Below are positions 4,324-44,913 of a stretch of DNA of 45,921 bases, one piece after another. Within the stretch, counting starts at the first letter, position 1; every line of letters starts with the position of its first letter. The notes under the pieces are model-generated. The model was not told the origin of the DNA. It saw only the letters and a list, made by a program, of their open reading frames with translations, and ran no database searches. The DNA comes from Escherichia phage vB_EcoP-611R6. A program made the translations under genes and the position numbers. The DNA is taken from the sequence record ON470589.1; one strand, given 5' to 3'.

Positions 4324-4338
4324 TGGTGTCCCCTGCAG
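4324..4338. repeat. attL core: partial copy of the argW 3' end
   Basis: Exact 15-bp match to 44839-44853. Confidence 0.6.
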
Positions 4339-4395
4339 ACATCTACTTGAGGATGCAGGGGATTGATTGGAATGGTGTTTTTTAGATGTGAAAAA

Positions 4396-4417
4396 TATTT
4401 TACCCGCTATTTTACCC
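4396..4417. promoter_or_regulatory. Two direct copies of TATTTTACCC (4396-4405, 4408-4417), candidate recombinase arm-type binding sites in attL
   Basis: Same octamer TTTTACCC / GGGTAAAA recurs around the integrase start at 44678-44722. Confidence 0.35.
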
Positions 4418-4612
4418 ATTGGCGCGGCTTAAGAGCTTATTTTTGAATTCACAATGGTCACGATATAACCATCTTGCTCGCCCGTGGATAACTTTGGCTT
4501 TTGGCAGGTCGCCGGACTTAATCCGGTCATAGATGAAGGTTTTACCGAAGCCAGTATCGGCCATGATGAATTTCAAATCAACCAGTGAATCAGGCTGTAG
4601 TTCGTGTTGCAT
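4412..4612 (-). CDS. torI: Excisionase / recombination directionality factor (TorI/AlpA-like winged helix)
   Basis: 66 aa, MQHELQPDSLVDLKFIMADTGFGKTFIYDRIKSGDLPKA...; RBS GGAGA before the ATG; sits at the prophage end opposite the integrase, as in KplE1/CPS-53. Confidence 0.7.
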   Translation of the reverse strand: MQHELQPDSLVDLKFIMADTGFGKTFIYDRIKSGDLPKAKVIHGRARWLYRDHCEFKNKLLSRANG

Positions 4613-4651
4613 GAGTGCTATCTCCGAATAGGGAATCGAACCTGCAAATCA

Positions 4652-4680
4652 GGCAATAAAAAACCGCCATCAGGCGGTTT
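4652..4680 (-). terminator. Rho-independent terminator (minus strand) after the early-left genes
   Basis: Stem AACCGCC / GGCGGTT with loop ATCA, followed on the minus strand by TTTTTTATT. Confidence 0.5.
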
Positions 4681-4743
4681 GGTGTTCTTTCAGTTCTTCA
4701 ATTCGAATATTGGTTACATTGTTTTCATATATGAATAAATAAA

Positions 4744-4923
4744 TTAGCTTTTTTCGTTGCCTTCGCTTTCTTTATTAATTTTAACAAACTCGTTTTTACC
4801 ACGCTCTCCAAATGCGTCTTTAGAGTCGTTGTATCCGCAATCGCAGCACACATAATCACCAGACCATCCACGCATTGTTTTTTCTTTTGCAATATTTCCA
4901 GAACCGCATTTTGGACAAGACAT
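4744..4923 (-). CDS. Small zinc-ribbon protein (CPKC...CCDC)
   Basis: Start taken at the internal Met (MSCPKCG) because it is preceded by GGAGG; four-Cys motif. Confidence 0.5.
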   Translation of the reverse strand: MSCPKCGSGNIAKEKTMRGWSGDYVCCDCGYNDSKDAFGERGKNEFVKINKESEGNEKS

Positions 4924-5019
4924 ATCACTACCTCCAAAGCATGAGTGAGATGACAACGTAACATTGATTGGAGATTAACAATAGATTGCTGATGTAAAAG
5001 ATATGTATAAGCTTCGCTT

Positions 5020-42666: not shown

Positions 42667-42915
42667 CCATAACAATCGACCTAAAGAGATCACCAAACTG
42701 AGCATGGTTGTAAATTCAACTAACCCAGTGCGTTGACAAAAAATTAGCGCAAGAAGACAAAAAATCACCTTGCGCTAATACTCTGTTACAGGTCACTAAT
42801 ACCATCTAAGTAGTTGATTCATAGTGACTGGATATGTTGTGTTTTGTCGCGTTTTGCAGTCTATTATTTAATCATTAAGTAATCTAATGCTATGATTTTT
42901 AAATTATTTATGTGA

Positions 42916-43095
42916 TTTTGTCATCCTTTAGGTGAAGAAGGTGAACGGTATTACACTGTAGATTATTCTGGTGTTACTGGCTTGCTTGTTCAGGTAGCCA
43001 GAGAGTCAGACGACAGAATAACAGCACTGGAAGAAGAAAACGCAGAATTAAGACAAATGTTATCTGCAATTGAGGCAGCGCTTGCGTCTAAATAA
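42916..43095 (+). pseudogene. Orphan 3' fragment of a tail-fibre/tailspike-like gene (C-terminal coiled-coil tail, no start codon)
   Basis: Open frame ...GERYYTVDYSGVTGLLVQVARESDDRITALEEENAELRQMLSAIEAALASK with a stop at 43093-43095 and an in-frame stop upstream at 42913-42915. Confidence 0.35.
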
Positions 43096-43137
43096 TATTA
43101 ATGGGCCGAGCGCCCCGTTTTATTGGGTAGGATGAAA

Positions 43138-43425
43138 ATGGATATAACACCCTTACTTCATGCACTTTGTGCTGTGGCTGCGCAGCTACTGATTGGTCTT
43201 TTTACCGGAAACTGGGCTTACGGTGCGATAGCCGGTTGTACGTTCTTCATTGCGCGTGAACACACCCAGGCAGAATATCGCTGGATTGAAATGTTCGGGC
43301 ATGGCAAGCGTATGAATATGCCGTGGTGGGGCGGTTTTGATCCGCGCGCGTGGGGTGTGGGAAGTTTGTTGGATTTTTCTTTCCCAATTATCGGATGCTT
43401 ATCGGTATGGATTCTTGCATCGTAG
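43138..43425 (+). CDS. Small membrane protein (about 95 aa, 3 hydrophobic segments) between the acyltransferase and the integrase
   Basis: SD AGGA 5 nt before the ATG at 43138; the track ORF begins at a TTG at 43123; no recognised family. Confidence 0.45.
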   Translation: MDITPLLHALCAVAAQLLIGLFTGNWAYGAIAGCTFFIAREHTQAEYRWIEMFGHGKRMNMPWWGGFDPRAWGVGSLLDFSFPIIGCLSVWILAS

Positions 43426-43519
43426 CGAACACATAATTACAGATGAAACAAAACTGAGACACACAAAGCTTTGCACTGGATTGCAAGGCTTTGTGATATT
43501 CGATAGTTGTTAAGGCTGA

Positions 43520-44677
43520 TCACTCTACCTTATCATCAAGCCAGTCCGCCCACCATTGCATCATTTCTCTGCGCTTATCGAGATACTGAGCATGGTTGTA
43601 AATCCCACGCACAGATCCGCCGTTGGCATGTGCCAGTTGCACTTCAATGGCGTCGGCAGGCCATTCGTGCTCGTTCATAATCGTGCTGAATTCATGCCTG
43701 AATCCGTGACCGCTTTCCAGACCCTCATAGCCGATTTGTTTGATCACAAGCAATACCGCGTTCTCGCAGATTGGCTTCTTCTTATCGTTGCGCCCGGCAA
43801 AAACAAATTCTGATACTGGTTTGGTGATTGAGCTTAGCGTAGTGAGAAGTTCAATCACCTGGTCTGACATAGGAACCACATGAATTTTTCGCCCCTTCAT
43901 CACACTGGCGTCGATGGTGATAATCCTGTTTTCAAAATCGACGTTCTTCCATTGCATGGAACGAAGCTCTTTCGTTCTTAGGGCTGTGTAGCGTAAAACT
44001 TTGGTCGCAATGAGCGATACGATGCTTCCTGAAAATGTTGCCAGTGCTTTGTTGAATGCAGGGATCTGGTCTGCTGGAAGAAACGGGAAGTTCTTCTTGC
44101 GGTATCCCTTCATGGCGTCAGCAAGATCAGGGGCCGGGTTATATTTAGCCCTTCCGGTGACAATAGCGTAACGGAAAACCTCGCCGCATCTTCTGCGTGC
44201 TTTGTTGGCTCGTTCCATTGCACCGCGATCTTCAAATCTGCGGATTACTTCCAGCAGTTGCATCGGCTCAATATCCTGAATTTCAAGGCCGCCGATGATA
44301 GGTAAAATGTCGTCATCAAACATTTTTGCAAGTTCAGTTGCATAGCCTACTGACCAGACTTGCTTCTTGTGCTCGTACCATTCCTTGTAAATCGCACCAA
44401 AGGAATTGTTGTTAGACGAAGCCTTTTTCGCTTTTACCGGATCAATGCCAACCGAGATGTCTTTCCTCGCGGTCCATGCTTTATCTCTTGCCTCTTGCAA
44501 AGTCATAAGCGGATATTTTCCTACGGTCAGGATTTTCTCCTTACCGTCAATCTTGTAGCGAAGCTGCCATACCTTTTTCCCGGATACAGGGACATAAAGG
44601 TACAGTCCATTACCATCGAGAAGGCGGTATGGTTTTTCTTTCGGCTTTGCTGCTTCAATCTGCTTAACGGTGAGCAT
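43520..44677 (-). CDS. intS: Tyrosine integrase (IntS/P4-type, argW-specific)
   Basis: Start taken at MLTVKQIEAAKP (385 aa); the track ORF begins at a GTG 12 codons upstream; C-terminal R...HxxR...Y catalytic region; start-proximal to the tRNA. Confidence 0.85.
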   Translation of the reverse strand: MLTVKQIEAAKPKEKPYRLLDGNGLYLYVPVSGKKVWQLRYKIDGKEKILTVGKYPLMTLQEARDKAWTARKDISVGIDPVKAKKASSNNNSFGAIYKEWYEHKKQVWSVGYATELAKMFDDDILPIIGGLEIQDIEPMQLLEVIRRFEDRGAMERANKARRRCGEVFRYAIVTGRAKYNPAPDLADAMKGYRKKNFPFLPADQIPAFNKALATFSGSIVSLIATKVLRYTALRTKELRSMQWKNVDFENRIITIDASVMKGRKIHVVPMSDQVIELLTTLSSITKPVSEFVFAGRNDKKKPICENAVLLVIKQIGYEGLESGHGFRHEFSTIMNEHEWPADAIEVQLAHANGGSVRGIYNHAQYLDKRREMMQWWADWLDDKVE

Positions 44678-44722
44678 GGGTAAAAATCCGGTGGGTAAAA
44701 TTATTTTATCCACTTTTTACCC
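44678..44722. promoter_or_regulatory. Integrase promoter/attR arm region with GGGTAAAA (44678-44685, 44693-44700) and TTTTACCC (44715-44722) repeats
   Basis: Inverted copies of the octamer also found twice at attL. Confidence 0.35.
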
Positions 44723-44838
44723 GTCATGGAGTGCGGCTGTCAACGATCTGAAGCGAACCATGACGAACTGTGAATCTACGGAAGGCTTGATATTCAGGGG
44801 ATTTTGCGGACTGGTACGGATGGGAGCGAACTGATAAA

Positions 44839-44913
44839 TGGTGTCCCCTGCAGGAATCGAACCTGCAATTAGCCCTTAGGAGGGGCTCGTTATATCCATT
44901 TAACTAAGAGGAC
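44839..44913 (-). tRNA. argW: tRNA-Arg (anticodon CCU)
   Basis: 75-nt cloverleaf on the minus strand: acceptor GTCCTCT, anticodon loop CTCCTAA, T-arm GCAGGTTCGATTCCTGC, CCA end; its last 15 nt form the att core. Confidence 0.85.

Follow-up and report, generated by a model that had tools for sequence, protein, structure and literature searches.

An argW-integrated P22-like prophage with the IntS/TorI recombination module in sequence record ON470589.1

Sequence record ON470589.1 (Escherichia phage vB_EcoP-611R6) is a stretch of 45,921 nt; this whole stretch is called the window here, and all coordinates refer to it. The window carries a prophage delimited by two copies of a 15-bp repeat, one of which is the 3' end of an intact tRNA-Arg(CCU) gene, argW. 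The element is very probably a P22-like temperate phage (Lederbergvirus, of the HK620/Sf6/CUS-3/Kapi1 type) that was integrated at the argW 3' end by the tyrosine integrase IntS. Its boundaries, sequence identities and gene content were established directly. The integrase gene intS adjoins the tRNA gene in the same orientation and the excisionase gene torI lies at the other end, an arrangement known from the K-12 element KplE1 (also called CPS-53) and from several complete phages.

Boundaries of the element and its attachment sites

The window contains exactly two copies of the 15-mer TGGTGTCCCCTGCAG, at 4324-4338 and 44839-44853, and no third is found there at up to three mismatches. Among 100 dinucleotide-preserving shuffles none yielded two or more matches to it, even with up to two mismatches allowed. 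The identity of the two copies spans exactly 15 bp, the neighbouring bases differing on either side. The single tRNA found in the window by ARAGORN, with which Rfam agrees, is an intact tRNA-Arg(CCU) at 44839-44913 on the minus strand. The right core copy is the 3'-terminal 15 nt of this tRNA, reading CTGCAGGGGACACCA on the minus strand, CCA included; the left copy at 4324-4338 has the same minus-strand sequence, duplicates the argW 3' end at a displaced position and equals pawZ of K-12. An earlier, sequence-only reading of this DNA had proposed both the direct repeat and its overlap with the intact tRNA, and both hold. It had also named the junctions attL and attR. The junctions are sound but the labels follow the window and are the reverse of those in the KplE1 literature, where the argW/intS junction is attL and the torI junction attR (PMC2951348); in KplE1 naming, then, the left core copy belongs to attR and the intact argW to attL.

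The empty site was predicted by joining the 1000 nt that precede the left core copy to the 1000 nt that run from the right copy onward. This 2000-nt attB composite is present as a single piece at 100% identity in many complete E. coli genomes, and 1413 of the 5426 complete E. coli genomes have one place that covers at least 80% of it. Because the composite is matched in one piece at 100% in genomes that are empty at this site, the prophage boundaries are exact. The comparison with prophage-free argW loci, which the earlier reading had put forward as a check, thus returned the boundaries that it had predicted. In one genome the annotated order at the empty site is cscA, a kinase gene (cscK), a gene for a transporter of the major facilitator superfamily (MFS; cscB), a DUF4942 fragment, tRNA-Arg and yfdC.

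The other excision product, attP, was predicted by joining the inner ends of the prophage in minus-strand orientation (torI side, core, intS side). The composite aligns colinearly, with no internal gaps and 98% identity, to the hkaC-attP-int segment of phage HK620, whose record annotates an attP core, attP repeats and int within the aligned segment. Since the attB and attP composites both match natural sequences, both excision products exist as the 15-bp repeat predicts. The core sequence of the argW module has been published (PMC2951348), and the corresponding feature is present here: a duplicated core, CTGCAGGGGACACCA(T), derived from the argW 3' end, of which 15 of 16 nt are duplicated with the tRNA left intact.

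The host DNA to the left of the prophage (window positions 1-3882) is the csc sucrose cluster, consisting of the GH32 invertase gene cscA, the PfkB kinase gene cscK and the LacY-type permease gene cscB; K-12 carries dsdC in its place. The right flank of the window is yfdC. In the host flank, cscB and the att site are separated by a short fragment of a DUF4942 gene (3962-4144, minus strand), which NZ_CP026723 annotates as a fragment; an older integrative island at argW, now decayed, probably left it behind.

Could the 15-bp repeat be merely an internal junction of a larger mobile unit, an argW island that takes in the csc genes and the DUF4942 fragment as well? The argW-dsdCXA region is cited as a known hypervariable island in a passage of PMC8787464, and the DUF4942 fragment does sit between cscB and the repeat. 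However, prophage-free genomes in which cscA-cscK-cscB, the DUF4942 fragment and argW are adjacent match the attB composite at 100%, and the window holds no other core copy within the three-mismatch limit given above. We therefore consider such a unit highly improbable. The empty-site genomes dispose of the csc genes and the DUF4942 fragment as parts of the element, and the absence from the window of further or degenerate core copies likewise led us to reject tandem elements or a larger island. That the repeat is a chance match, the element having been inserted by some other route, is more improbable still: besides the shuffling result, the repeat coincides exactly both with the empty-site junction and with the attP core annotated in HK620.

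The IntS/TorI recombination module

The integrase gene (43520..44677, minus strand) encodes a protein of 385 aa with the Pfam domains Arm-DNA-bind_3, Phage_int_M and Phage_integrase; 381 of its 385 residues are identical to those of IntS from K-12 CPS-53/KplE1. Its ATG, at 44677, is 161 nt from the tRNA's 3' end, on the tRNA strand, and the gene reads into the element. At the far end of the prophage torI (4412..4612, minus strand), the last early-left gene, encodes the 66-aa excisionase, or recombination directionality factor (RDF), and ends 73 nt from the left repeat. The protein has no Pfam match but is identical at all 66 positions to the K-12 TorI chain (PDB 1Z4H); it is also 100% identical to HkaC of HK620, gp18 of Sf6 and the Kapi1 protein, and is found at 100% identity in 18 phage records. 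The sequence-only reading had put an integrase beside the tRNA, reading inward, and a 'TorI-like' excisionase at the opposite end. Both placements are correct and so is the identification, except that the wording was too cautious, the protein being TorI itself. The likeness to the K-12 KplE1/CPS-53 arrangement that had been remarked on was confirmed as well, with IntS at 99%, TorI at 100% and nearly identical att arms.

The P arm of attP (4339..4411, minus strand) lies between the torI stop codon and the core. Over these 73 nt four differences from K-12 were counted, a second tally of this arm giving five, and torI itself has three silent changes. Two GGGTAAAAT direct repeats, at 4397-4405 and 4409-4417, are predicted arm-type sites for IntS and correspond to attP repeats in the HK620 annotation. 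The P' arm (44678..44838, minus strand) contains five TorI site cores, further arm-type repeats (GGGTAAAA, within 44678-44722) and the region to which the intS promoter was mapped in K-12; its 161 nt between argW and intS carry two substitutions relative to K-12, neither of which is in a site core. The motif GGGTAAAAW has six exact matches in the 46-kb window, of which five are in the att arms (at 4397, 4409, 44678, 44693 and 44714). These five correspond to the repeats in the HK620 annotation, and they are presumed to be the IntS arm-type sites.

The five TorI site cores (GTTCG, GTCCG, GTTCG, GTTCG and GATCG) all fall within 44740-44832. In the published module five TorI sites, with cores GTTCG, GTCCG or GATCG, form two blocks in the intS-proximal arm; the intS promoter lies in the same arm and is repressed by both IntS and TorI (PMC2951348). 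A sigma-70 scan gave one promoter-like match within the P' arm. Binding of IntS and TorI at the predicted sites, TorI-dependent excision, and repression of intS by the two proteins would accordingly be expected of the present element by likeness to K-12.

How the parts would work together can be set out as follows, with promoter use and protein binding taken as predictions. IntS will have recombined phage attP with the 3' end of host argW, the exchange falling within the shared 15 bp CTGCAGGGGACACCA, so that the tRNA was left whole and a 15-bp duplicate arose at the other end of the prophage. The minus-strand order in the circular phage is PL ... torI - attP - intS. Because attP lies between torI and intS, integration separates the two genes to opposite prophage ends. 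Phage lambda has a similar order, but there attP comes after int, whereas here it is between xis and int. In the lysogen, intS would be transcribed solely from its own att-arm promoter beside argW and would be kept low by the binding of IntS and TorI; this model of low intS expression is adopted because of the near-identity to the K-12 sequences for which it was shown. The torI gene, for its part, comes last in the early-left operon, which the repressor controls, and follows an intrinsic terminator; from that position we infer that production of TorI has to wait for cleavage of the repressor and for antitermination by N. Once made, TorI would occupy the five GTTCG-type sites in the arm next to intS, and under its direction IntS and IHF would cut the genome out again, which would recreate attB and attP. 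The placement of torI fits the published model, in which it is the supply of the RDF and not that of the integrase that triggers excision (PMC2951348).

Directly upstream of torI is an 8-bp GC-rich hairpin followed by a T run (4661-4680, minus strand), which resembles an intrinsic terminator. The hairpin is kept in HK620 and missing from K-12 KplE1. It would tie torI expression to antitermination of the early-left transcript. A search of the available literature for Rho-dependent control of torI yielded nothing usable.

A second feature of the torI leader is a 16-nt box, TTGCAGGTTCGATTCC (4632-4647, minus strand), which stands just upstream of the ribosome-binding site of torI and has the same sequence as the argW T-arm. 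In the tRNA TTGCAGGTTCGATTCC is contiguous with the 15-nt core; in the phage torI separates the two, at a distance of 293 bp. A shorter form of 12-13 nt, A(G/A)GTTCGATTCCC, identical to the T-loop and T-stem of argW, stands 15-18 nt upstream of the RDF start codon. It is invariant and equally far from the start codon in K-12 and HK620, and is invariant also in Erwinia phage Midgardsormr38 (as a tandem pair), Salmonella phage Emek and Erwinia phage phiEt88, whose RDFs are 88%, 52% and 39% identical to TorI, respectively. Klebsiella phage Chronis and Erwinia phage vB_EhrS_49 lack it. In the compared loci, boxes of the TTGCAGGTTCGATTCC type are at 11776-11791 in L002 (K-12), at about 1955-1988 in L005, at about 1957-1972 in L006 and at about 470-485 in L088. 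A search of IMG/VR for TorI was uninformative on divergence of the leader box, as only 100%-identical copies were among the 80 loci kept.

What might the box be for? An RNA hairpin that sequesters the ribosome-binding site was rejected, as four leaders have no common structure (z-scores -1.9 to +0.8). A plain TorI operator, suggested by the GTTCG within the box, is weakened by phiEt88, which retains the box though its intS-proximal arm is without GTTCG repeats. The box is a candidate for an extra core-type integrase site, for an operator, or for what is left of a longer ancestral attP. Tentatively, and at odds that we would put below even, the box may be a functional cis element of the xis-attP-int family, for example an extra core-type integrase site or an RDF operator, and not a decaying tRNA fossil.

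Phage body and accessory genes

The prophage interval, 4339-44853, is 40,515 bp long, and this length is typical of the group (38-44 kb). Megablast of the interior matched the P22-like phages vB_EcoP-683R2, Kapi1, HK620, Sf6, N7, HF4s and CUS-3 at 96-98% identity in mosaic blocks, the best single record covering 57-60% of each half. Gene content was assigned by Pfam and PHROG profile searches, with essentially full-length matches. The characteristic P22-like (Lederbergvirus) features are all present: the virion module, immI with sar, a lambdoid early region and a lysis cassette. At the level of gene content the phage genome can thus be called complete as far as profile matches support it, in agreement with the earlier claim that a complete P22-like genome is attached to the module.

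The early-left (PL) operon (4725..11751, minus strand) contains genes for an N-like antiterminator (11452-11751), cIII (10430-10600), RecT (9129-10040) and a Gam-like protein (8663-9151), all on the minus strand, along with ea/DUF551 accessory genes; torI is its last gene. The CI/C2-type repressor gene (12594..13310, minus strand) encodes helix-turn-helix (HTH) and S24 autopeptidase domains, both full length. The early-right operon (13411..19881, plus strand) has cro, cII, O, a DnaB-like P (helicase), a nin region (NinB, RusA and others) and the Q antiterminator, and is followed on the plus strand by the lysis cassette (20391..21638: holin, endolysin and Rz spanin). The P22-type packaging and virion module (22705..36352, plus strand), identified by PHROG and Pfam and by nucleotide matches to HK620 and Sf6, includes TerS, TerL, portal, scaffold, gp5 coat, gp4, gp10, gp26 needle and gp14, as well as the ejection proteins gp7, gp20 and gp16. 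The immI region (37823..39522, mixed strands) comprises an mnt-like gene on the minus strand, an arc-like gene, a small open reading frame (ORF), the antirepressor gene ant and sar; two of its proteins have the Pfam Arc domain and a third has P22_AR_N/P22_AR_C. The sar antisense RNA (38553-38619, minus strand; Rfam score 87.7 bits against a gathering score of 43) overlaps the start of ant, as in the immI region of P22. The tailspike gene (39623-41542, plus strand) encodes a P22 head-binding domain, and its stop codon overlaps the start of a gene for an Acyl_transf_3 O-acetyltransferase (41539-42666, plus strand).

Several points weigh against reading the element as an intact P22-like phage of the argW group. 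The duplicated core is 15 nt here, 16 nt in K-12 (with an extra T) and 17 nt in strain MP1 carrying Kapi1; this difference is explained by the host flank, arising because the host bases 3' of argW differ and not because the site does. By megablast, neither half of the element is covered to more than about 75% in any phage or complete E. coli record; the element is therefore a mosaic, as is usual in this group. Profile matching would miss a point mutation in an essential gene, and inducibility and virion production of the prophage are predictions from its sequence. The last two points bear on the possibility that the prophage is cryptic or defective, that is, that it excises via IntS and TorI like KplE1 and its lytic cycle is blocked by a lesion hidden from gene-content analysis. 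Relatives at argW are often decayed, among them K-12 CPS-53 and a prophage of E. coli FT130 that is without head genes. On the other side, for every expected P22-like function there is an ORF that a profile matches over essentially its full length, both the HTH and the S24 domain of the repressor are retained, no insertion sequence (IS) element or truncated gene was seen in the phage body, and 40.5 kb is an ordinary length for such a phage. A hidden lesion of this kind is unlikely on balance, yet by some way the most plausible of the alternatives to an intact temperate phage integrated by IntS.

Some accessory genes deserve mention. The O-acetyltransferase gene at 41539-42666 occupies the same position as oac in Sf6 and is likely to be an O-antigen-modifying moron. 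Neither this gene nor the receptor-binding part of the tailspike had a megablast match in 50,697 phage records; E. coli FT130 does have the cassette of the two, in an argW prophage that has decayed. The acetyltransferase and the phage-unmatched receptor part of the tailspike may bear on the serotype and the phage susceptibility of the host strain. Between the gp16 gene and mnt, at 36353-37807, are an ORF of 134 aa on the minus strand and a P63C-domain ORF of 343 aa with a TTG start. P22 has sieA at the corresponding place, and the two ORFs could be superinfection-exclusion morons. PADLOC gave no defence-system match for ten accessory or flank ORFs, including the genes at 36353-37807.

Comparison with known argW elements and P22

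The wording of the sequence-only reading had suggested that the attachment of the KplE1-type arrangement to a P22-like genome was something unusual. This part of it does not stand, since HK620, Sf6, CUS-3 and Kapi1 share the module and the int/xis split (PMC2951348, PMC3509656, PMC8787464). The KplE1 module was described as common to HK620, Sf6 and CUS-3 (PMC2951348), the RDFs HkaC of HK620 and P18 of Sf6 as 100% identical to TorI (PMC3509656), and Kapi1 as having the same core, with attP between int and xis and the two genes at either end of the prophage (PMC8787464). The arrangement is also frequent. The intS gene with its arm is present at a coverage of at least 80% in 1864 of the 5426 complete E. 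coli genomes, and 444 stretches in IMG/VR encode a TorI relative. An int/xis-split argW arrangement on a P22-like genome is thus already known and common. The value of the present analysis lies mainly in annotation, as it provides base-exact boundaries for a gene-complete member of the group with an experimentally characterised IntS/TorI module; it raises no new question on site-specific recombination.

KplE1/CPS-53 of K-12 shares with the element the argW site, the core, IntS (99%), TorI (100%) and near-identical att arms, as well as the spacings of 161 nt between argW and intS and 73 nt between torI and the core, with intS and torI at opposite ends. In the K-12 annotation the displaced 15-nt copy appears as the pseudogene pawZ. 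KplE1, however, is a 10.2-kb remnant with neither repressor nor virion genes and without the terminator hairpin upstream of torI, whereas the element in the window is 40.5 kb long and gene-complete, and has the hairpin.

P22 itself shares the virion module, the immI region (mnt/arc/ant/sar) and the lambdoid early regions. It differs in its integrase, in its attachment site (thrW) and in having attP beside int (xis-int-attP), so that int and xis stay together in the prophage. HK620 shares the P22-like organisation, and 44-60% of the genome matches it at about 96-97% identity; HK620, Sf6, CUS-3 and Kapi1 all integrate at argW and split int from xis as here. The differences from this group are mosaic and lie in the ea, nin and immunity regions and above all in the receptor-binding domain of the tailspike, together with the O-acetyltransferase gene that is found here between tailspike and int. 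Of the known systems, then, KplE1 is the defective case, and P22-like phages are the documented natural context of the module.

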